This document shows, in pieces, positions 5,289 through 64,000 of a stretch of 64,000 bases of DNA; position 1 is the stretch's first letter, and each line of letters opens with the position of its first letter. The stretch lies in IMG/VR virus record IMGVR_UViG_3300025131_000005. One strand, given 5' to 3'. Under the pieces are notes generated by a model. It was not told where the DNA came from. It searched no databases and was given only the letters and a program-made list of their open reading frames with translations. Made by a program: the position numbers and the translations under genes. This stretch comes from a virus.

Positions 5289-6065
5289 ATGAGTGAGAGA
5301 GAGTTCGAATTTGTACACAAGAACCCAAAGTCTTTTATAACAACCGGGGATATGGGAGACGTTATATATCACCTTCTCTTCATAAAGAAACTAGGGGGCA
5401 CCAAATATCATATCGATCCATCTCCTACCAGCTATGAGAGAAATGGATACATTCGAGTTGGGGACGGTAACCCAGGAAAATTTAATTTAACTAAGGCGCT
5501 TTTTCTGTTGCCGTTAATTAAGAAACAATCTTATCTGGAAGATGTAGATCTCTATAATAGTGAGCCCTCACGAGCTTGGCAGTATTATGATGTCCATACA
5601 GGGGAATACCACAAGGATGATCTAGGCATGCAAAATTTAGTTCAGTTTCATGCTAAGAAGTATGGCTTGCCCCTCGACGAGCTAAATGAGCCATGGCTAG
5701 AGGTTAAGTCAGCGAGAAGAGTCGATCCCAACCGCGACACGGTAATTAGCCGAACGCTAAGATATCGAGGAAATGATAATTATTATTACTTTAATAGAGA
5801 GCGTCTTAACCAGAGGGGAGTTTTTGTTGGACTTGGCGAGGAATATACAGATTTTGTGCAGAGATTTGGTTGCGTTAATGTACCTCTCCGCCGCGTAGAT
5901 ACCGCCTTGGAGATGGCAGAAGTCATTAATGGACATCAACACTTTGTAGGTAACGGCTCTTTGGTAGCGTCAATTGCTTTAGGTTTGGGATTAGAGATAG
6001 AATATGAGTTTTGTCCAGCTGCTGCTCATTATTTATTCAAAAGAGATAATATTAATATATTTTAA
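5289..6065 (+). CDS. Putative GT-B/GT9-like glycosyltransferase
   Basis: GDMGDVIY N-terminal motif and FVGNGSLVASIALGLG C-terminal motif parallel the GT9 layout; context. Confidence 0.45.
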   Translation: MSEREFEFVHKNPKSFITTGDMGDVIYHLLFIKKLGGTKYHIDPSPTSYERNGYIRVGDGNPGKFNLTKALFLLPLIKKQSYLEDVDLYNSEPSRAWQYYDVHTGEYHKDDLGMQNLVQFHAKKYGLPLDELNEPWLEVKSARRVDPNRDTVISRTLRYRGNDNYYYFNRERLNQRGVFVGLGEEYTDFVQRFGCVNVPLRRVDTALEMAEVINGHQHFVGNGSLVASIALGLGLEIEYEFCPAAAHYLFKRDNINIF

Positions 6066-6082
6066 TAAAAAAGGAAACACAC

Positions 6083-6883
6083 ATGAAAATTGCATTTATA
6101 TCATATATTTTTGGCAACGACCACGCCGTTGTTAATTTTGGAACCTTCAAGATGATGAGTTCTTTCAAACGTTTTCATCCGGATATTCCTCTCTATATGC
6201 TTACAGAGAAAGAGATTAACAAAGAGGCACAAACAGTAGTTCCGATGAGTATGACTTATTTAAATCCTCTAATGACGCGTACAATCGCTGATGATTATGA
6301 CCTTGTGGTTCATATCGATACCGATGTTGTGGTAACGGATCGCTTAGATGAAATTCTAGAGGGCGATTATGATGTTGCGGTGGGACGCAATAATGCGGAT
6401 CAAAGAACTGCAGGATGTGGCACTCCTCACACTCTAAATGGAGAAGTAGACGTTTTTAAATATGCAAATGCGGGAATTGTAGCATCTACTAAAAAGGAAT
6501 TTTGGGATGATTGGGTTGAATTAAATCAAAAGAATTTTAATAAATATCCTATGCATGAACAAGACAATTTAAATATTTTGATTAATTCAGGTAAATATAA
6601 AGTTAAATGGTTAGATCCACCGGAAAAATCGCTATATTATAATATTGCTAGTGCCTATGGAGATCCCAAGTGGAATGGTCAGTGGGACAAACACTGGGAA
6701 AGTTGGGAAAGAATTGAACTTAAAGATGATAAATTGTGGCTCGATGGAAAACTGATAAAGATGTTACATTATGCCGGGGGGAATACGCCCGATAAATTTA
6801 ATCTTACGAGGCATTTTTCTGATGAAGTCACAGAGCATATTAAAAAGCTTTGTAATATACCAAAGAAATTTAAAGGAGAATAA
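6083..6883 (+). CDS. GT8-like (GT-A) glycosyltransferase
   Basis: HIDTD (DxD), NAGIV, EQDNLN and MLHYAG motifs. Confidence 0.75.
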   Translation: MKIAFISYIFGNDHAVVNFGTFKMMSSFKRFHPDIPLYMLTEKEINKEAQTVVPMSMTYLNPLMTRTIADDYDLVVHIDTDVVVTDRLDEILEGDYDVAVGRNNADQRTAGCGTPHTLNGEVDVFKYANAGIVASTKKEFWDDWVELNQKNFNKYPMHEQDNLNILINSGKYKVKWLDPPEKSLYYNIASAYGDPKWNGQWDKHWESWERIELKDDKLWLDGKLIKMLHYAGGNTPDKFNLTRHFSDEVTEHIKKLCNIPKKFKGE

Positions 6884-8140: not shown

Positions 8141-8841
8141 TGAAGGTACAGAAACAAATGGAGAGTATTAATTATGAATTTGGAGGTGATTTATTTATTG
8201 ACGTCGGCGCTAACGTCGGCATGTGGGTTAAGGAGCTGGGGTATCTTTATGGCAGAATCATATGTATAGAGCCGAGTCAAGAGGCTTTTAAACTACTCAG
8301 ATCTGCAACGGAATACAAATATGGAGATAAGACAACTTATATAAATAAAGCTGGTTGGTCCGAGAGTAATTTAAGATTAGATTTAGCAGCTGGGGGACAC
8401 GATACTGGAAATTTTACAGTTTTTGGAGAAAAATTGATAAAACCAGAAAATATAATCAAACGTGATACATGCACTACCATGACTATAGATGAATTACTTG
8501 ACGAGGTGAAGGACGAAGAAAAAGATATTCTAATTAAAATAGATACAGAGGGAGCAGATTGGGAAATCCTTGACGGCGCGAGAGATTTTATCAAGGCACA
8601 CAGGCCAACGATTGCTTTGGAGAATCATTTTCATATGCATTATGATAAAGAAAAATATTATTCATTGATTTCTTTTTTTCATGAACAAAATTATAATATA
8701 ATTGAATTTAAGAATACCGACTATCTTGAGTCCTACAATCACCAACGAATTTTTGGCGGTGACCGGGATTATACGGGAGCAGAGATGTATGACAAACATT
8801 ACCAAATGATATTTGAACCAAAAAAGTTTTTAGGTGAGTAG
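8140..8841 (+). CDS. FkbM-family SAM-dependent methyltransferase
   Basis: FIDVGANVG, IEPS and KIDTEGADWEILDG motifs. Start is the ATG at 8140 after AAGGAG. Confidence 0.85.
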   Translation: MKVQKQMESINYEFGGDLFIDVGANVGMWVKELGYLYGRIICIEPSQEAFKLLRSATEYKYGDKTTYINKAGWSESNLRLDLAAGGHDTGNFTVFGEKLIKPENIIKRDTCTTMTIDELLDEVKDEEKDILIKIDTEGADWEILDGARDFIKAHRPTIALENHFHMHYDKEKYYSLISFFHEQNYNIIEFKNTDYLESYNHQRIFGGDRDYTGAEMYDKHYQMIFEPKKFLGE

Positions 8842-37840: not shown

Positions 37841-39498
37841 TGGCAATAAAAAAATATATAGCAACTAAAGATACCACCATAACAAATGCTTTTGATCCAA
37901 ATCTCCGGACTAGGGCGACTGGAGCCAACATGGGAGCTTCTGATGTGATGGAGGTTTTTTCCATATATGGGCAGATGATTTCTTCTGGTTCCACTATCGG
38001 TTTTTCTAAGACACAAGAATTATCTAGGATTTTGGTTCAATTTGATAGTGCCCAAATGAGAACTGATAGAACCACCGTGCTTCCGGAATCCGGCAGTGTA
38101 AAATTTTATTTACGTCTTTTTAATGCCAAACATGGTCAAACAACTCCTGAAGATCCCAAATATGTTGTTACTCCGCTAAGCCGCACTTGGGAAGAAGGCT
38201 ATGGGATGGATATAGATGATTACACGGATTTAACTAAGGATGGCGTGGGCGCAAATTGGATAAAAAGTGCGGGGACTACTAGTTGGACAAATATTGGCGG
38301 TGATTATTTAAATGCATATGAAAAGACTCAGACCTTAACGAAAGCTAATCAAGATATTGAATTAGATATCACCGATATTGTTGAAAAATGGATTACTGGC
38401 TCAAGCGGCGGCGGCTTTTCAAATTATGGACTTGGGATCCATTTAACATCAAGTCAAGAAGCGTTTTTTTCCAGTTCTCTTGGTGTTGATTTAAGTTCTT
38501 CGATTCAAAATCCAGATGGAGCTAAAAGATCTTACTATACTAAGAAATTCTTTGCACGTAAAACACAATTTTTCTTTAAACGTCCTGTAGTCGAAGCAAG
38601 GTGGGATTCTTCTCTTAAAGATGACCGGGCAAAGACTTTTTATAGTAGTAGCCTTCTTCCAGCGACGGATAATCTTAATAAATTCTTCGTGTATAATTAT
38701 GTCAATGGGCAACTTAAAACTTTTGGTGATCCATGGGGATATAAACAAGGTGCTATGGTACCGCCTGTTTTTGTTCAATTATTTTCCGGCTCTACTGATA
38801 ATACGAAACCGTCTGGTTCTGCATTAAACGTTGTTACGAGTGTTTCAAATGTTTCTGAGGATACCCCAACTGTAATTAGTGGTGGTTTTGTATTAGCTAA
38901 TAAACAATCATTGCCTGATACTATGGGTATATATTCGGCGTCATTCGCCATTACGGCGTCTTCTCCGGCACTTACACGAATATTTGATGTCTGGTACCTA
39001 AATGAGTCCGGAGTACCAGGAACAGTCATTTACACGGGTTCTTTCGCTCCATCAACTTATGGGTTATCTAGTGTTTCCACACAGCCTGAATATGTCTTTA
39101 ATATAACTAATCTTAAAGATTCATATTTGAACAATGAAAAAGCACGCTTTGAACTTTTTGCAAGACGAAAGGATTGGAATCCATCAATCTACACTGTAGC
39201 TAATGCAGATCCACAGAATTTTATTTTGGAAGATATTTATTATAGAGTTACGAGAATAATTGATGGTACACTGGCAATATCCTTTGGTACTGGAAGCTCC
39301 ACTCCGCAGAGTAATGGTTCTGCTGGTTCATATACAAGATTATCTTATGACGCCTCTGGCTCTTATTTCGATTTAGATATGTCACTTCTTGAGCCTGGAT
39401 ATGGCTATAAGCTAGAATTTGTTTATTTTAATAACAATAACTATGCAAATGTAAGAGACGAGTTTAAATTTAGAGTCGAGGAAGATTTAGATGGCTAA
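37840..39498 (+). CDS. Baseplate-associated structural protein (beta-sandwich, DNRLRE/CBM-like N-terminus)
   Basis: KDTTI...SRILVQFD...LDITDIVEKW...NYGLGI...P.VEARWD pattern; position in the wedge operon. Confidence 0.5.
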   Translation: MAIKKYIATKDTTITNAFDPNLRTRATGANMGASDVMEVFSIYGQMISSGSTIGFSKTQELSRILVQFDSAQMRTDRTTVLPESGSVKFYLRLFNAKHGQTTPEDPKYVVTPLSRTWEEGYGMDIDDYTDLTKDGVGANWIKSAGTTSWTNIGGDYLNAYEKTQTLTKANQDIELDITDIVEKWITGSSGGGFSNYGLGIHLTSSQEAFFSSSLGVDLSSSIQNPDGAKRSYYTKKFFARKTQFFFKRPVVEARWDSSLKDDRAKTFYSSSLLPATDNLNKFFVYNYVNGQLKTFGDPWGYKQGAMVPPVFVQLFSGSTDNTKPSGSALNVVTSVSNVSEDTPTVISGGFVLANKQSLPDTMGIYSASFAITASSPALTRIFDVWYLNESGVPGTVIYTGSFAPSTYGLSSVSTQPEYVFNITNLKDSYLNNEKARFELFARRKDWNPSIYTVANADPQNFILEDIYYRVTRIIDGTLAISFGTGSSTPQSNGSAGSYTRLSYDASGSYFDLDMSLLEPGYGYKLEFVYFNNNNYANVRDEFKFRVEEDLDG

Positions 39499-57349: not shown

Positions 57350-58342
57350 ATGGGTTTTTTAGATAATTCCGGCGATATAATTTTAGACGCCGTTCTGACT
57401 GATTTAGGACGCGAAAGGATGGCAAGAGGTGACGGTTCTTTTAGGATTGCAAAGTTCACTGTAGGCGACGATGAAATTGATTATGGCAAATATGATCTTA
57501 GTAAAGTAACCTCTCTAAGAGATATAGATATTCTCAAGACACCTGTTCTGGAAGCTTTTACTGATAACGGTGCACAAATTAGATCCAAATTAGTTACGAT
57601 TGCTAGAAATGATCTTCTATTTTTACCAATTTTAAAATTAGTTAATGGTACTGTTAATAGCAAATTGGTTACTTCGACAAGTGCCGTTTTGAGTACCGAT
57701 AATGTAATATATGTAACTGCTGATTTAGATACCTCAAAAACATTAGCAGCAGCTTCTGCAACAAATACTAGTGTTCGTCAGCTTTACATCCGTCCCGGCG
57801 TTATACGCGGTGATGGTACTACTGATGCTCCTAAAAATACCTCGATGATTGTCATTGATCAAGGGTTGGATACGATTAAAATTCCACAAAGTACTCCATT
57901 GGATGCTGATTTAACAGAAACTCAATACCTTATCCAATTAGATGATAGGTTAGGACAACTTCAGACAGCTCCGTCTAAGACTACCCAAACACTAGCACCG
58001 GTAAATTTTGTTGATGATGATAGAATTGCAAATTATTATGTTCATGGTTCGCAATATGTGACGAAGATTGCTCCTGCTTCTACTCAAAATCCAACAGCAA
58101 CAAAGTCTGCTATTTTGGGTCCTCTTGGCACACGCCTAATGTTTGCAATTCGAGCATCAACTAATATAGCAACCTCCACTACACTTTTTGATAAATTAGG
58201 TAGTACAAAAACTGATTTATCATTAAGCGGCGAGGACTATAGCGCGTTTACATTCAAGATTATTGATTCAATTGCTAGGGTAACAGGCGTTACAACTGGG
58301 TATCGCTTGGATATACCCATTAGATATATCAAGAAAGTTTAA
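57350..58342 (+). CDS. Structural protein with tail-collar/fibre-attachment-like N-terminus
   Basis: LTDLGRERMA...FTVGDD resembles the LT..G...a...it.favGD start of DUF3751-type tail-collar domains; GGAG RBS. Confidence 0.5.
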   Translation: MGFLDNSGDIILDAVLTDLGRERMARGDGSFRIAKFTVGDDEIDYGKYDLSKVTSLRDIDILKTPVLEAFTDNGAQIRSKLVTIARNDLLFLPILKLVNGTVNSKLVTSTSAVLSTDNVIYVTADLDTSKTLAAASATNTSVRQLYIRPGVIRGDGTTDAPKNTSMIVIDQGLDTIKIPQSTPLDADLTETQYLIQLDDRLGQLQTAPSKTTQTLAPVNFVDDDRIANYYVHGSQYVTKIAPASTQNPTATKSAILGPLGTRLMFAIRASTNIATSTTLFDKLGSTKTDLSLSGEDYSAFTFKIIDSIARVTGVTTGYRLDIPIRYIKKV

Positions 58343-58356
58343 AATAGGATTATAAA

Positions 58357-59427
58357 ATGGCAAAAGATTTTTTTAAAGCACTTCTTCCCGGAGATAAAAC
58401 AACCGTCAGATCGCTTCTATATGAATCGATTCCAATTACCGGTTCATTAGTTTCAGGAACTTATTCTTCTGGTGATAATATTAAGAATTATTCTCATGGA
58501 ATGTTTCAATCTGTGTACGATTATCCTTATTTGAGTTCATCAGCCAATCATATATTTGATTTAACTGCTGGTTATCATTCAACTTCTAGCTTATCGGGCT
58601 CAACCCCACAAAACAATACAGATAGAAAAAACAAAATTAACATGTATAATCAAATGGCACAGGTCTTGATGGGCTATGATGTAAACAGCAATATTGAAAG
58701 ATTTGATAGCGATGGAATTTTGGTAGATTCTGCTAACAAAATGAATGAGGTTATTTTTGTTAATTTTGCTAGATTATTGACCAAGGATGAAATTAAAAAA
58801 GGATCTGTTAATATTGAATTAGGTGTTACTGGGGCATACGCTACTCCATTTCTTGATCGAATTAAGTTAACCGATAAATTGGGTTCCAATGGATATTTTG
58901 TTAATGGTGCGATTGGTCAATATGGTACCCTTTATTGTACAAATACCGCTGGGGAACCTTTGAGCGGATCTGATGGTGATGCAAAAGGTGGAGTGGTATT
59001 TTATCAAGCAGGTATTGCAGCAATTACGGCTTCTGTATTTGGTTCACTTCTCTCCTCTAGCGCAGAGATGAACTTTACTGGTTCAACTATCGATGCTATA
59101 TTGACCGGTTCGAGTACTCTCGCAATTTGTAATGAAATACGACACCGAATTTATAATATTCAATATACTAATACCACTGAACTAAACTCAACTGTTTATT
59201 TTTGTCGTCTTAACAATAATGAATTTAACTATAGTTCCAATCCTACTTATACATCTGCCAGCCAGATTGTCGTTAAAGATGTTGCAAATGATCTACCGGT
59301 TAGTTATATGACTACAGTTGGTTTGTATTCGGCAAAGAATGAACTTTTAGCCGTTGCTAAAGTTTCCGAACCTTTGAAGAAGAGCCCTGATACAGAGTTA
59401 ACTTTAAGAGTACGATTGGACTACTAG
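58357..59427 (+). CDS. Structural protein with tail-collar-like C-terminus
   Basis: C-terminal YMTTVGLYSAKNELLAVAKVSEPLKK...VRLDY. Confidence 0.55.
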   Translation: MAKDFFKALLPGDKTTVRSLLYESIPITGSLVSGTYSSGDNIKNYSHGMFQSVYDYPYLSSSANHIFDLTAGYHSTSSLSGSTPQNNTDRKNKINMYNQMAQVLMGYDVNSNIERFDSDGILVDSANKMNEVIFVNFARLLTKDEIKKGSVNIELGVTGAYATPFLDRIKLTDKLGSNGYFVNGAIGQYGTLYCTNTAGEPLSGSDGDAKGGVVFYQAGIAAITASVFGSLLSSSAEMNFTGSTIDAILTGSSTLAICNEIRHRIYNIQYTNTTELNSTVYFCRLNNNEFNYSSNPTYTSASQIVVKDVANDLPVSYMTTVGLYSAKNELLAVAKVSEPLKKSPDTELTLRVRLDY

Positions 59428-59437
59428 GTGTTATGGA

Positions 59438-60649
59438 ATGCCGTATTATAAATTTGGTAAAAATGATTTATTTCGAAACACCATAACCACTTATCCGGAA
59501 GTAAGTTTTTATATATATGGTACCAAAGTATATTATCAAAATCAAGATCAAACCTTAGTCAATTCCAATAATCCCACGGGATATGCTAATCTATATGAAT
59601 TGAATGTCAATCGGGCACCGGATAATTTAATTTATCCTTTTATGCTGAAAGATTCGACGTTGACTTCTTTTAAATATGATTATACTAGTGATACTCCCGT
59701 AGAGCAGCAATTTACGGATTATATGAAAGACGATTATGGTACGGAAATTAATGGTTCGTATCCCATGACAGCTAGCATTACTACCTCTTTTCCTGGATGG
59801 GGGTTGACAGATCAAGCTAATCTTACCGGCACTTTACAGCTCCAAGCACTTAAAAATATACTTAATGATAAAGTATATTTGACACCTCATTATGCTTATT
59901 CTGCATCTTATGGTGATTTTCATTGGGACAAAAACAACCAAAGCATGACGTTGCTGAATATTCCTTCGATATTTTATGGGTCTAAAATTAAAAAGGGGAC
60001 TGTTAAATTAGAATTTTTTGTATCAGGTTCATCGATAGGACAGTTAGTTGATAAAGATAGAGATGGTGCCCTATACCAAGTATCGGGTGCTCTTTCTACC
60101 AATGACGGTAAGGTCGGTGGTGTTGTGTTATATCCAGAAGGAATAATGTTGTTGACAGGCTCGTGGCCCCTCTCAGCACACGAAGAAGATTATATTGAAG
60201 ATGGTTCTCCAATTCCGACACAATGGGATGCTTTTGGCCGTTCAACAGATTCAACACCATCATCTTCTTATTCAATCAATTTTAGTGGTTCTCAAAATAC
60301 ATCTGTCATGACAATGATGTGCCACGCTCCAGCTGGTGAACTTAACTATAGTCACAATCCTACTTATATTGAGTTCAATACTAGTTCGTCCGCTGGTGTT
60401 GTGGATGCCAAACATCACCAATATGTAACGTCTTCCACACAATTTTATGAGGTTGAAAATAATAAAGTTAAAAATACCGTTTCTTCATCATTTCAGTGTT
60501 ATGGTGAACCTTTTAAGAAACAAACTTTTATAACAAAAATAGGCATCTATGATGATAATGATAATTTAATTGGAATTGCTAATCTTGCACGTCCCGTAAA
60601 GAAAACAGAGAATCGAGATTTAACTTTTAAACTTAAGCTTGATATATGA
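59438..60649 (+). CDS. Structural protein, paralogue of the 58357 gene
   Basis: Shared IKKG.V.. and C-terminal FITKIGIYDDNDNLIGIANLARPVKK...LKLDI. Confidence 0.55.
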   Translation: MPYYKFGKNDLFRNTITTYPEVSFYIYGTKVYYQNQDQTLVNSNNPTGYANLYELNVNRAPDNLIYPFMLKDSTLTSFKYDYTSDTPVEQQFTDYMKDDYGTEINGSYPMTASITTSFPGWGLTDQANLTGTLQLQALKNILNDKVYLTPHYAYSASYGDFHWDKNNQSMTLLNIPSIFYGSKIKKGTVKLEFFVSGSSIGQLVDKDRDGALYQVSGALSTNDGKVGGVVLYPEGIMLLTGSWPLSAHEEDYIEDGSPIPTQWDAFGRSTDSTPSSSYSINFSGSQNTSVMTMMCHAPAGELNYSHNPTYIEFNTSSSAGVVDAKHHQYVTSSTQFYEVENNKVKNTVSSSFQCYGEPFKKQTFITKIGIYDDNDNLIGIANLARPVKKTENRDLTFKLKLDI

Positions 60650-60662
60650 TAGAATATTTGTT

Positions 60663-61184
60663 ATGATTCTAGGCTTAGATATAAGCACCAGCATAACAGG
60701 TGCGACCATTATTGATAATGATGGTAATATAATTTATAATGAGGCTTGGGATACTAGAAAATATAAGAACTTTTTCAAAAAAGCCTGCGTCATACATGGA
60801 AAGCTTGAGGATATGGTATATAAATACAAGTTAACGCATATCTATATCGAACAATCACTCCAATCATTTCGCTCCGGTTTTTCCTCTGCCAAGACTCTTT
60901 CAACACTCTCTAAATTTAATGGCGTTGTTTCTTGGATGTGTTATAGTTTTTTTAATATTGAGCCTGAATATATTGCTGCAACATCTGCTCGCAAGAAATG
61001 TGGGATTAAAATTCCGAAAGGTACCAAAGCAAAGCAAGAAGTTATAAAATTTGTGCTTGACAATGTGCCAGATGTTGATATAGTATATACCAAGCACGGT
61101 AATCCGCGCCCTGAATGCTTCGACAAAGCAGATAGCTGGGTTATCGCAAATGCAGGGTATTTATGTCAAGTGGAAAAAAGCTAA
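60663..61184 (+). CDS. RuvC-like Holliday junction resolvase
   Basis: ILGLDISTSITG, IYIEQ and DKADS acidic catalytic set. Start moved to the ATG at 60663. Confidence 0.8.
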   Translation: MILGLDISTSITGATIIDNDGNIIYNEAWDTRKYKNFFKKACVIHGKLEDMVYKYKLTHIYIEQSLQSFRSGFSSAKTLSTLSKFNGVVSWMCYSFFNIEPEYIAATSARKKCGIKIPKGTKAKQEVIKFVLDNVPDVDIVYTKHGNPRPECFDKADSWVIANAGYLCQVEKS

Positions 61185-62107
61185 AGATTTTAAGTAGTGC
61201 TTTAGGTTATTCTCATCGTTCTGGTAATGAGCTTCTATTTGAATGCCCCAAGTGTCAACATCATAAAAACAAGCTTTCAATTAATATTGATAAAGATGTA
61301 TTTAAATGTTGGGTTTGTGAATATGCTGGTCGTTCCATTTATCGACTTATTCGTCGTTATGGAACATTTGAGCAACGAAGAGAGTGGGCGTCACTTACAC
61401 AGGAGATTGAAACAAAGTCGTTATCTGAAGCTTTGTTTGGGAAAGAAGAAATAGAACCAGAACAAGTACTTGAGTTACCAAAAGAGTTCATATCTCTTGC
61501 CAACAGAAAGCTTCCTAAGACCTCTCTCTACCCTCTAAATTATTTGGAAAGTCGAGGCTATACAAAGCGAGACATTATTAAATGGAAAATGGGTTATTGT
61601 TTGGATGGAGAATATGAAGGACGTATCATTATTCCCTCATTCGGAATGACGGGAAAAGCAAATTATTTCATAGCAAGAAGTTATTCAGGAGATTGGAAGA
61701 AATATCAAAATCCGAAAGTATCAAAAGACATTATTTTCAATGAGTTATATCTAGATTTTGATGAGGATATGATTTTGGTCGAGGGTGTGTTCGATGCCAT
61801 TAAGGCAGGAGAAAACGCCGTTCCATTATTGGGATCTACTTTGAGGGAAGATTCAAAATTATTTCAAGAGATTGCTAAAAATGACACACCAATTTATATT
61901 GCTTTGGATTTAGATGCGCAGACAAAAGCTTTAAAAATAATTAAGTCTCTATTAGAATATGATATAGAAATACATCAGATTGATATTTCTCCTTATGAAG
62001 ATGTAGGAGGCATGTCTAATGCAGCCTTTCTAAAGCGCAAGAAAGAAGCAAAATTTATAAAATCTTATGACTATTTAATAGATGAAATAATTAACTTACG
62101 GGGGTGA
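61163..62107 (+). CDS. DNA primase (Zn-finger plus TOPRIM; short phage DnaG type)
   Basis: CPKCQHHK...FKCWVC, YLESRG, RIIIP, KYQNP, LVEGVFDA, IALDLDA. Confidence 0.88.
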   Translation: MSSGKKLKILSSALGYSHRSGNELLFECPKCQHHKNKLSINIDKDVFKCWVCEYAGRSIYRLIRRYGTFEQRREWASLTQEIETKSLSEALFGKEEIEPEQVLELPKEFISLANRKLPKTSLYPLNYLESRGYTKRDIIKWKMGYCLDGEYEGRIIIPSFGMTGKANYFIARSYSGDWKKYQNPKVSKDIIFNELYLDFDEDMILVEGVFDAIKAGENAVPLLGSTLREDSKLFQEIAKNDTPIYIALDLDAQTKALKIIKSLLEYDIEIHQIDISPYEDVGGMSNAAFLKRKKEAKFIKSYDYLIDEIINLRG

Positions 62108-62446
62108 ACTGGTATCGACTGAGTATTAAAAATATAACGTGCAAGGGTGTGTGAGTGGCACAGTAAAAACATTCAAAACTTTAATTGCTAACGATAACGT
62201 TACTTTTGATTACGCCCTAGCGGCATAATCACGGGGAATAATGAGAGCCTTGTTATCCAAAGACTGTTCCGTTGATGGTCCTCTTCGGAGGGTAGACGGT
62301 CAAGTGGTTTTTTCAAGTAGGACCCATAGGACAAACTTGATAGTGCGCGGTGTGAGTTTGTCAGAGTTCGCAAACTGACTAACCTTGTGAATGACGTTAT
62401 ATTGGAAATATTTAGGACTCGGGTTCGACTCCCGACACCTCCACCA
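62100..62446 (+). ncRNA. ssrA: tmRNA (one-piece), tag ANDNVTFDYALAA at 62187-62228
   Basis: Acceptor stem GGGGGTG/CACCTCC with G3.U, discriminator A and encoded CCA; T-arm TCGGG-TTCGACT-CCCGA; helix 2 pairings ATATAACGT/ACGTTATAT and GCAAGG/CCTTGT; pk1 GTGT/GCAC plus GAGTG/CATTC; tag ORF ending ALAA-stop. Confidence 0.97.
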
Positions 62447-62453
62447 AAATAAC

Positions 62454-62482
62454 TTGACAAATGTAAAAGAAGCCGATATACT
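62454..62482 (+). promoter_or_regulatory. Near-consensus sigma70 promoter
   Basis: TTGACA (62454-62459), 17 nt, TATACT (62477-62482); the ATG at 62489 lies 7 nt downstream. Confidence 0.8.
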
Positions 62483-62488
62483 ATATAA

Positions 62489-62995
62489 ATGAATGTAGCA
62501 GAACTTATTTGCGCAGCCTACGTTTCATTAATGCTTCCAAATGCTGATATAGCTTGTGAGCATATGGAAATAGTCATTGAGGCTAGCGATCAAAATTATA
62601 TAGATCCCACAGTTCTAGTTTCTCTAATATATGTGGAAAGCCGATGGACTCCGGCCGCCACAAGTAAATCGAACGCTTGCGGACTAACCCAGGTGCTTCC
62701 TCGCTATTCTGCTGGACGCAACAATCGTTTCGGGAAAAAGCTCACATGTCGCGACCTCAAAGATTCTAATGTAAGTATCCATCGAGGCGCACGTGTTCTT
62801 AATTTCTGGTATCACAAATACGCTCGACGAAACCTCAAGTACGCCCTCTGCGGTTATAGCAAAGGTTTTCGCTGTAAGCAAGAAGGAAAACCACGCAAAG
62901 TCGGCATGCGCTATGCGCAGAAAGTGATGAAATTAGCACGCAAAATACAACGTAAGATTAAGATAATACAGAAAAGTAAAATGGACAACCAATAG
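62489..62995 (+). CDS. SLT-family lytic transglycosylase
   Basis: LIYVESRW (catalytic Glu), ACGLTQV, SIHRGARVL, ALCGYSKG. Confidence 0.8.
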   Translation: MNVAELICAAYVSLMLPNADIACEHMEIVIEASDQNYIDPTVLVSLIYVESRWTPAATSKSNACGLTQVLPRYSAGRNNRFGKKLTCRDLKDSNVSIHRGARVLNFWYHKYARRNLKYALCGYSKGFRCKQEGKPRKVGMRYAQKVMKLARKIQRKIKIIQKSKMDNQ

Positions 62996-63002
62996 TTATA
63001 AA

Positions 63003-63010
63003 ACTATTTA
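63003..63010 (+). promoter_or_regulatory. Candidate late-promoter motif ACTATTTA within a short inverted repeat
   Basis: AATAGTT-ATA-AACTATT hairpin at 62992-63008; intergenic. Confidence 0.4.
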
Positions 63011-63029
63011 ATATTTAGAGGGATATACT

Positions 63030-63275
63030 GTGAAAATCACAAAAGACAAACTTAACCAAATCATCAGTGAGGAAATCAAGAGGCACGAAGTCCTCAAAGA
63101 AGTGAAGAAGGTGTCCTTAGTTGAAGGAAGTAACCCCCAACTTTTGAAACTCATGAAAGAAAGATTTGAGAAACTGGGCGCAAATTACTTCGAAGCGCTT
63201 CAAGAAAACGATAAAGAACTGGCTCAAACCTTAAAAGAAGAGCTGAATAAGATTTTTAACGATTTAAAAGTATAA
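63030..63275 (+). CDS. Small helical hypothetical protein
   Basis: GAGGGG RBS and GTG start; MKITKDKLNQIISEEI N-terminus. Confidence 0.65.
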   Translation: MKITKDKLNQIISEEIKRHEVLKEVKKVSLVEGSNPQLLKLMKERFEKLGANYFEALQENDKELAQTLKEELNKIFNDLKV

Positions 63276-63281
63276 AAAGTC

Positions 63282-63310
63282 TTGACTTTCTTTCTTGTTT
63301 CTGCTATATT
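63282..63310 (+). promoter_or_regulatory. Sigma70 promoter with extended -10
   Basis: TTGACT (63282-63287), 17 nt, TG-C-TATATT (63305-63310); GGAG at 63323; the inverted repeat AAAGTC-TT-GACTTT overlaps the -35. Confidence 0.75.
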
Positions 63311-63331
63311 GTAGCCTATACTGGAGTTTGT

Positions 63332-64000
63332 ATGCGATTTGCGCATATTGCGGATACCCATATCCGTAATTTAAAATACCACAAAGAATATAGAGCAGTT
63401 TTTAGCCAACTATACGAAAACCTTCGAGAGCAAAAACCCGACTATATTATTCACTGTGGCGACATAGCACACACGAAGACACAGATCAGTCCTGAATACG
63501 TGGAAATGTGTTCTGATTTTCTTAAGAGTTTGGCAGATATTGCGCCAACTTATGTGATTCTTGGTAATCACGATGGAAACTTGCGTAATTCTAGCCGTCA
63601 AGACGCCTTAACACCCATTGTAAAGGCTTTGGAGCACCCAACCCTACACTTGATGCGGAATGCGGGAGAAACGCGCTTAGAGGGCGGTTATACGCTTAAT
63701 GTCTTATCTGTGTTTGATGAGGACAATTGGGTTCAACCAACTGACAAAAATCGCATAAACATTGCTTTATATCATGGGTCAATATCACGTTGTCAAACTG
63801 ATCTTGGCTGGACAATGGAAAGAGGTGAAAATGATATTAGTGTCTTTGATAATTTTGACTATGGTTTTCTTGGAGATATTCACAAAACCAATCAAACCTT
63901 AGATGAGAAAGGAAAGATTCGCTATCCTGGTTCGACTGTGCAACAGAACCATGGAGAAACGAACGACAAAGGATATTTGCTTTGGGATATAGAAGATAAA
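63332..64000 (+). CDS. SbcD/Mre11 (gp47-like) metallophosphoesterase nuclease, 3' truncated by the window edge
   Basis: Own translation: MRFAHIADTH...HCGDIAH...ILGNHD...LYHG...LGDIH...YPGS. Absent from the track because no stop lies in the window. Confidence 0.92.
   Translation, partial: MRFAHIADTHIRNLKYHKEYRAVFSQLYENLREQKPDYIIHCGDIAHTKTQISPEYVEMCSDFLKSLADIAPTYVILGNHDGNLRNSSRQDALTPIVKALEHPTLHLMRNAGETRLEGGYTLNVLSVFDEDNWVQPTDKNRINIALYHGSISRCQTDLGWTMERGENDISVFDNFDYGFLGDIHKTNQTLDEKGKIRYPGSTVQQNHGETNDKGYLLWDIEDK

Follow-up and report, generated by a model that had tools for sequence, protein, structure and literature searches.

A phage primase gene that ends inside the neighboring tmRNA gene: probably tolerated packing

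What follows for a phage when a protein-coding gene ends inside the gene of the RNA that rescues ribosomes from messages without a stop codon? The question is raised by a 64,000-nt stretch of the IMG/VR virus record IMGVR_UViG_3300025131_000005 (the window, below, is this whole stretch), in which the open reading frame (ORF) of a DNA primase stops within the adjoining transfer-messenger RNA (tmRNA) gene. It is established that RNase P makes the 5′ end of tmRNA and that stop-less mRNAs are substrates for rescue by trans-translation (PMC3985003). The original prediction for this locus combined these facts into a built-in feedback, in which maturation of the tmRNA removes the primase stop codon and the primase made from the cut message is tagged and degraded. 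We read the overlap instead as a probable by-product of gene packing or cassette loss, one that is tolerated, would lower the yield of primase per transcript, and forms no conserved regulatory circuit. This reading rests on the anatomy of the junction, the tight packing of the genes, the distribution of the arrangement among relatives, and the recurrence of the junction. The elements involved are the following.

61163-62107, + strand: gp61/DnaG-type DNA primase ORF, 314 amino acids (phrog_47, DnaG profile matches, family alignment)
62099-62100, + strand: predicted RNase P cleavage site, C-1 / G+1 (from the acceptor-stem register and known tmRNA processing)
62100-62107, + strand: 8-nt overlap, in which tmRNA nt 1-8 form the end of codon 313 (cGG), codon 314 (GGG), and the stop (TGA) (sequence, ARAGORN, Rfam)
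62100-62446, + strand: complete one-piece tmRNA, 347 nt, with tRNA-like domain, G3-U pair, and encoded CCA (ARAGORN and Rfam)
62187-62228, + strand: tag reading frame from the GCT resume codon (62187) to TAA (62226-62228), encoding ANDNVTFDYALAA (ARAGORN coding part 88-129)

The primase ORF ends ...AAC TTA CGG GGG TGA, with the stop at 62105-62107, and ARAGORN, Rfam, and the register of the acceptor stem agree in placing G1 of the tmRNA at 62100. The last 8 nt of the ORF are nt 1-8 of the tmRNA, and the UGA is nt 6-8; an upstream coding sequence (CDS) on the same strand stops inside the mature RNA. No terminator can stand between the primase stop and the tmRNA because the stop lies inside the latter, and for the same reason no full-length primase mRNA can end short of the tmRNA. 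The original prediction had described the locus correctly in every detail. Aligned with its sisters, the window primase has their length plus Arg-Gly, and these two residues come from tmRNA nt 1-5.

By tests of its zinc and TOPRIM motifs, the upstream ORF is a gp61/DnaG-type primase. It matches the PHROG family phrog_47 ("DNA primase") at 2.7e-38, and the profile of its family matches the DnaG primase structures 2au3 (1.8e-6) and 4e2k (1.5e-5) over residues of about 150-290; the single sequence had no Pfam match at 1e-3. In the family alignment (A2), the N-terminal zinc-site residues C28, C31, H33/H34, C49, and C52 are invariant, as are E207, D211, D249, and D251 of the TOPRIM core (Glu, Asp-x-Asp). 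A blastn search with 60600-63000 against 50,697 phage records, taken to cover cultivated relatives, gave zero matches, and the best protein matches among cultivated phages reach only 36% identity (Flavobacterium phage immuto).

Is the downstream RNA a working gene or a remnant? Phage-encoded tmRNAs are known, in about 2.3% of phage genomes (PMC9004378; PMC7162821). tmRNA genes are also common integration sites whose fragments are found in prophages (PMC9004378), so that a dead relic (an attachment-site fragment or pseudogene) or an assembly artifact, with zero processing, had to be considered. The gene is full length: Rfam RF00023 covers the same span as ARAGORN end to end (model 1-374, not truncated) at 120.6 bits, E 1.3e-47, against a gathering score of 47. 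Its tRNA-Ala-like acceptor stem pairs GGGGGUG with CACCUCC, including the G3-U pair, followed by an encoded ACCA; the T-arm is GGGUUCGACUCCC. The intact tag frame encodes a peptide ending in YALAA, a hydrophobic degron, and the tag is conserved across the tmRNA family with conservative variation.

Comparison with relatives makes a remnant or artifact highly improbable. Across 13 family members from viral contigs, compensatory double changes keep 20 of 66 consensus pairs. At the DNA level, the window tmRNA is 99.1% identical to that of its closest relative, L001, against 80.5% for the adjacent primase, and one of the three tmRNA differences between the two is a compensatory C-G to U-A change. 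The same junction is found in independent contigs. The tmRNA also sits in a run of phage replication genes (RuvC-like, primase, then orf81, SbcD-like) kept in synteny among relatives, with no integrase adjacent, and this context ruled out a prophage integrated in a host ssrA gene. By these features the window tmRNA is a genuine phage-borne gene, functional-looking and with predicted tagging activity.

Given these two genes, the likely course of events can be laid out. In this lineage nothing lies between primase and tmRNA and the primase lacks a stop of its own, most likely owing to a deletion or a cassette exchange, and the ORF reads on for two codons (Arg-Gly) into the tmRNA and halts at the UGA of nt 6-8. 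RNase P cleavage at 62099/62100 would free the 5′ end of the tmRNA and leave a primase mRNA with neither a stop codon nor a protective 3′ structure. Such a message would end ...AAC UUA C-3′, and a ribosome reaching its end would stall, holding Leu312 in its P site and facing a single base in the A site. Rescue with tagging would add A-ANDNVTFDYALAA or the host tag, with the YALAA degron at the end; alternatively, rescue factors would release an untagged product ending ...IINL, which is the normal C-terminus of the sister-phage primases. About 340 nt separate the stop from the 3′ strand of the acceptor stem, and the first coupled ribosomes could therefore terminate normally before this strand is transcribed. 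Terminating ribosomes would hold the stem open, and the stop-less fraction would be the outcome of a kinetic competition. Minimum-free-energy folding of the read-through RNA (62000-62460) paired the 5′ end in a shifted register, with a z-score of -1.98, and is uninformative on RNase P access.

The same steps can be read as a selected device. RNase P maturation of the tmRNA would then deliberately make a non-stop primase mRNA, the primase would be tagged and destroyed, and its shut-off or dosing would be tied to tmRNA biogenesis; in a softer version, one promoter would give much stable tmRNA and little primase. Such a feedback draws on the fact that the non-stop outcome follows directly from the anatomy once the enzymology is granted (PMC3985003), and on the YALAA end of the window tag. 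Regulation through stop-less mRNAs also has precedents in arfA (cited in PMC4131195) and lacI (cited in PMC3985003), and junctions with the stop inside a tmRNA recur, twice in the primase clade and in more than 50 contigs of a second ORF family, both described below. We nevertheless judge selected feedback unlikely. The untagged rescue product would already carry the C-terminus that is normal in sister phages, and the comparative evidence, taken up after the transcription signals, runs against it.

The promoter-like sites around the junction, together with the gene that follows the tmRNA, are these.

61057-61084, + strand: sigma-70-like promoter candidate, TTGACA-16 nt-TATAGT with TG (consensus scan, 11/12; pattern match only)
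62083-62091, + strand: weak extended -10-like element, TG-a-AATAAT, 8 nt ahead of G1 (read from the sequence and scored)
62454-62482, + strand: sigma-70-like promoter candidate, TTGACA-17 nt-TATACT, directly after the tmRNA and ahead of the SLT gene (consensus scan)
62489-62995, + strand: SLT-type lytic transglycosylase gene (Pfam PF01464 at 8.4e-16)
63282-63310: sigma-70-like promoter candidate ahead of the SbcD-like gene (consensus scan)

The first of these lies inside the RuvC-like ORF, about 80 nt ahead of the primase start, and is the likely promoter of a primase-tmRNA transcript. The candidate after the tmRNA is kept in L001 as TTTACA-17-TATACT. Pattern scans found no terminator-like site near the primase/tmRNA junction or between the tmRNA and 62454-62482, and no convincing promoter directly upstream of G1. 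Because a consensus promoter precedes the primase, only a weak -10-like element precedes G1, and no terminator intervenes, a joint primase-tmRNA transcript that starts at the upstream promoter appears to be the simplest reading of these pattern matches. The structural premises of the original prediction, a stop inside the tmRNA with neither terminator nor convincing promoter between the two genes, thus stand.

If the tmRNA were made mainly from its own weak promoter or from other starts, and if read-through RNA were poorly cleaved or translated first, the overlap would have next to no consequence and nearly all primase would simply end at the UGA. The element TG-a-AATAAT would allow a start at about A-2, and the coordinates imply that the first ribosomes finish before the 3′ strand of the stem has been made. 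This alternative is rather unlikely in our estimation, since the element has no usable -35 (2/6) and is kept neither in L001 nor in L148, another genome with the overlap, and since strong consensus promoters lie before the primase and after the tmRNA but not between them. Some related tmRNAs stand directly behind a tRNA gene or an ORF stop, which likewise points to their being processed out of long transcripts. Scoring of 19 tmRNA-family members found no conserved -35/-10 in the 70 nt before G1, with isolated good matches in L015, L017, L094, and L058 only. On this result we rejected the notion that the tmRNA is always made from its own promoter, while a weak promoter in the window is possible.

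The surroundings of the junction are tightly packed. The + strand carries all large ORFs of the window, and in about one of three neighboring gene pairs the genes overlap by 1-25 nt; the RuvC-like gene overlaps the primase start by 22 nt, and another 8-nt overlap is found at 39491-39498. The replication module runs in one direction in the order RuvC-like, primase, tmRNA, SLT, orf81, SbcD-like. A UGA occupies nt 6-8 in all sampled tmRNA copies with a 5′ end of the GGGGNUGA type, so one in three reading frames entering such a gene stops there. Because this UGA is standard and overlaps are frequent in the window, the primase-tmRNA overlap is not statistically remarkable.

If the overlap were a control element, would relatives keep it? 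In the primase tree, the window falls within a clade of tmRNA-linked primases with 100/100 support, which comprises eight genomes when a further pattern scan is added. Three of the eight carry the 8-nt overlap (the window, L001/L023, and L148/L021). In the other five the primase ends in ...NL followed by its own TAA or TGA, with the tmRNA 123 nt downstream in L147/L015, 701 nt in L146/L012, 1644 nt in L145/L310, and 2041 nt in L311; L312/L024 is the fifth. After this stop come a ribosome-binding site (RBS), a Cys-rich mini-ORF, and up to several small ORFs beginning "MKITKEQL...". More distant primases (48-65% identity) have no tmRNA nearby and end at the same alignment position, with an SbcD-like gene or another ORF within a few bases. 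All distant primases examined, like the five clade members, have a stop of their own, and a stop-less design is not conserved across homologs. The expectation that related phages would share the overlap was therefore not borne out, and with it the feedback part of the original prediction loses its support. One of the five, L146, is moreover a very close sister of an overlap genome (branches of 0.014 and 0.065).

The interval between primase and tmRNA is evidently a hotspot of variable small genes. Paralogous small ORFs with the shared N-terminus MKITKEQLKQIIKEEL fill it (L145:5663-6580 and 8208-8615; L146:4952-5606 and 5980-6584) and also stand after the tmRNA, behaving like a movable accessory gene family; two of them had no PHROG match. 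Cys-rich mini-ORFs with good RBSs (e.g. MKKILHKLANLFNDNHCCCCCGCCSCVNCSGKC and the 17-amino-acid MKCKCCECCACECEKCC) recur ahead of phage tmRNAs. They end from a few bases to about 20 nt before G1 in L015/L147 (a 34-amino-acid ORF), L018, L235, and L285 (the last two shorter) and directly follow the primase stop in L145 (4955-5056), L311, and L312. These mini-ORFs may encode leader-peptide-like or metal-binding peptides.

Three genomes with the overlap need not be three independent observations. The window and L001, a relative at 85%, share a block of 97-100% identity that comprises the last roughly 40 nt of the primase, the tmRNA, and the SLT gene, and beside this block the body of the primase is 71-89% identical. 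Elsewhere the RuvC-like gene is 96-100% identical at the nucleotide level and orf81 (63030-63275) 75-81%. Such mosaic genomes suggest that either a tmRNA-SLT cassette or primase alleles were exchanged recently. Because the block is near-identical, and either inherited or recombined as one, the junctions of the window and L001 count as a single event, and their agreement adds no independent support for a conserved feedback.

The third genome, L148, is nested among contigs of the gap type, paired with L146 at 94/90 (below the starred threshold; branches 0.065 and 0.014). Its junction reads ...CTT ATG C|GG where the window has ...AAC TTA C|GG, its primase is one residue shorter, and its tmRNA is a different allele of 310 nt that lacks the extra hairpin block of the 347-nt window tmRNA and has the tag ANDNVDFEYALAA. 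Owing to this nesting, the different junction, and the different tmRNA allele, the overlap has evidently formed at least twice, each time in the frame that stops at the UGA of nt 6-8. That the junction arose repeatedly, within an island of variable genes, gives no support to a built-in feedback. For the primase locus by itself, the comparative data argue for tolerated packing over a control circuit.

Several points weigh against tolerated packing as the whole account. Neither overlap lineage has gained a new upstream stop, which one substitution (TTA to TAA or TGA) would supply, and all independent fusions share the same minimal-overlap frame; both facts would be compatible with mild selection as well. 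The change at the base of the clade may have been a deletion or an insertion. The element at 62083-62091 may in addition act as a minor promoter, in which case part of the tmRNA would come from its own start.

A second set of junctions bears on the same question. A conserved ORF with a core of about 66 amino acids (MWKVYKY...GVIIKK) precedes a different tmRNA, with tags like ANNNNHFEQRLAA, in at least 80 viral contigs (loci L230-L309); an example is L230:1501-1707 on the + strand, whose tmRNA starts at L230:1700. Several of these contigs carry a primase 50-55% identical to that of the window, which itself has no homolog of the 66-amino-acid ORF. In more than 50 contigs the stop of this ORF lies 8-40 nt inside the tmRNA. 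Counted over 80 loci, it lies 8 nt inside in 33 (plus 6 truncated loci with the same junction), 10 nt inside in 10, 13 nt in 2, 27 nt in 6, and 40 nt in 2. It abuts G1 in 4 loci (plus 1 truncated) and lies upstream of the tmRNA by 4 nt in 2, by 10 nt in 9, and by about 60 nt, with a Cys-rich micro-ORF between, in 2; two further loci have no tmRNA downstream, and in one the ORF runs off the locus.

Beyond the conserved core, the tail of the protein varies with the depth of intrusion into the tmRNA. A stop that wanders in this way is the pattern predicted by unconstrained read-in, and it is a further point against selected feedback. It means, as we interpret the counts, that fusions with the stop inside a tmRNA are common and tolerated in these phages. 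One could instead take the fusion of an ORF to the 5′ end of a phage tmRNA, be it that of the primase or of the 66-amino-acid protein, as a selected and recurrent design of these large phages. The output of the ORF would then report or respond to the trans-translation capacity during infection, with ArfA-like logic arising from the tmRNA gene, and the primase case would couple replication to the state of the host translation machinery. We consider this quite doubtful.

The frequent fusions point to a conserved tmRNA-linked protein that is worth characterizing, and the ORF product may be a putative tmRNA-associated phage protein. It had no PHROG match, and its Pfam matches were scattered (E >= 0.005, in 1-2 of 29 members). 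Its AlphaFold model is confident (predicted local distance difference test score, pLDDT, 91.7) and has the order strand-strand-helix-strand-strand-strand; Foldseek against the PDB returned nothing below E 0.1, and VIA-align wide nothing above Z 4.4.

One subgroup of these contigs (L259, L261, L265-L270, and L306) has an ORF tail of ...NTRGSS with the stop 10 nt before G1. The "RG" of this tail comes from AGA GGA T, a sequence similar to a decayed tmRNA 5′ end, and the present tmRNA, GGGGGUGCC, begins 10 nt downstream and lacks the UGA of nt 6-8. The tail looks like the scar of a tmRNA cassette replacement.

How unusual are such junctions among viral tmRNAs in general? We sampled about 35 viral one-piece tmRNAs with the same type of 5′ end as the window and recorded the nearest upstream ORF of at least 50 amino acids on the same strand. 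The ends of these ORFs range from about 350 nt ahead of G1 to +8, with roughly twelve of them either inside the tmRNA or no more than 10 nt from G1. By this sample, the +8 arrangement is the end of a continuum of tight packing. A tRNA gene immediately precedes several of the sampled tmRNAs, and few of them show a promoter-like site close ahead of G1. Since such sites are few and ORF stops or tRNA genes often adjoin G1, co-transcription with release by RNase P looks usual for phage tmRNAs. The pattern suggests that these RNAs are as a rule cut out of long mRNAs. Some viral tmRNAs begin a few bases past the 3′ end of a tRNA gene or tRNA-like element; the cases noted are L088 and L090 (both about 60 nt before the tmRNA), L013, and L022. 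In the last two, ...GGGGTTCGACTCCCCACACCTCCATTCAC stands directly ahead of GGGGGTGA; ARAGORN calls a permuted tmRNA here, which could be tandem tRNA-like domains.

The idea of feedback through such an overlap has a bacterial history. In Candidatus Carsonella ruddii, smpB overlaps ssrA, which Hudson, Lau & Williams (2014), following Mao et al. (2009), called a feedback situation in the part of their account relevant here (PMC4131195). Half of the strains have the overlap, and the 2031 bacterial genome projects surveyed gave no other case (PMC4131195); the feedback concept is thus already published for that gene pair. Our locus resembles it in that a same-strand upstream CDS stops inside the tmRNA gene and in its patchy presence (3/8 in the primase clade), and the 66-amino-acid family resembles Carsonella SmpB in a C-terminal tail that varies with the depth of intrusion. 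Unlike smpB, which encodes the tmRNA's own partner in a reduced endosymbiont genome, the CDS here encodes a phage primase without a link to ribosome rescue, next to a phage-encoded tmRNA. In Carsonella the product would act on its own message; with a primase as the CDS, this self-referential element is missing.

Same-orientation overlaps with an upstream CDS number 250 among 115,660 bacterial t(m)RNA genes, e.g. an FtsW-family gene and tRNA-Ile in Helicobacter (PMC4131195, Table 4). Such overlaps are rare in bacteria (about 1 mRNA in 15,000) and have been proposed as high-frequency sources of non-stop mRNA, none of them characterized experimentally according to that paper (PMC4131195). The viral contigs we sampled show the arrangement far more often. 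What we add to the published concept is the evolutionary picture of the junction and the frequent stop-in-tmRNA fusions in viral contigs, including those of the conserved 66-amino-acid ORF; among bacteria, the 2014 survey had found the tmRNA case only in Carsonella (PMC4131195).

Two characterized genes share parts of the proposed mechanism. RNase III cleavage of the arfA message yields a non-stop mRNA whose product is controlled by tmRNA activity (Garza-Sanchez et al. 2011, as cited in PMC4131195). The processing proposed here would likewise remove the stop by endonucleolytic cleavage and make the fate of the protein depend on trans-translation. Whereas arfA has a conserved stop-less design and a truncated product that is an active rescue factor, the primase overlap is absent from most relatives, its nuclease would be RNase P, and the primase has no role in rescue. 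For lacI, truncated transcripts and SsrA tagging of LacI tune the level of the protein (Abo et al. 2000, as cited in PMC3985003). Here too, trans-translation would tune one protein through its own stop-less transcripts, but by excision of a downstream stable RNA and not by a transcriptional roadblock at an operator. In mitochondrial tRNA punctuation and in MALAT1/mascRNA, excision of a tRNA-like element by RNase P sets the 3′ end of the upstream RNA, and such excision can remove all or part of the upstream stop codon, which polyadenylation completes in mitochondria. At the primase junction, unlike in mitochondria, A residues added to ...UUA C would create no stop codon.

If processing proceeds as outlined, a phage replication enzyme would be made largely from messages that lose their stop codon. 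The locus would then offer a natural system, easy to engineer, for testing what RNase P excision of a stable RNA does to the upstream mRNA and its protein, with the sister phages supplying the control allele, a primase with a separate stop.

The host side of the locus left a few traces. The 5′ 20-mer of the window tmRNA also occurs in tmRNAs of beta- and gammaproteobacterial metagenome-assembled genomes and in one contig labeled Acidimicrobiia, and all of these have different tags (ANDETYALAA, ANDNSYALAA, AEDNFALAA). We set aside a host assignment from the tmRNA, as the 20-mer shows a proteobacterial-type 5′ end only. Near-consensus sigma-70 sites (10-11 of 12 positions) precede individual genes of the replication module at 60712-60740, 61057-61084, 62454-62482, and 63282-63310. 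Promoter-like sites number 37 over 58000-64000, where 22 ± 5 are expected, an excess that points to use of TTGACA/TATAAT-type promoters by the host RNA polymerase.

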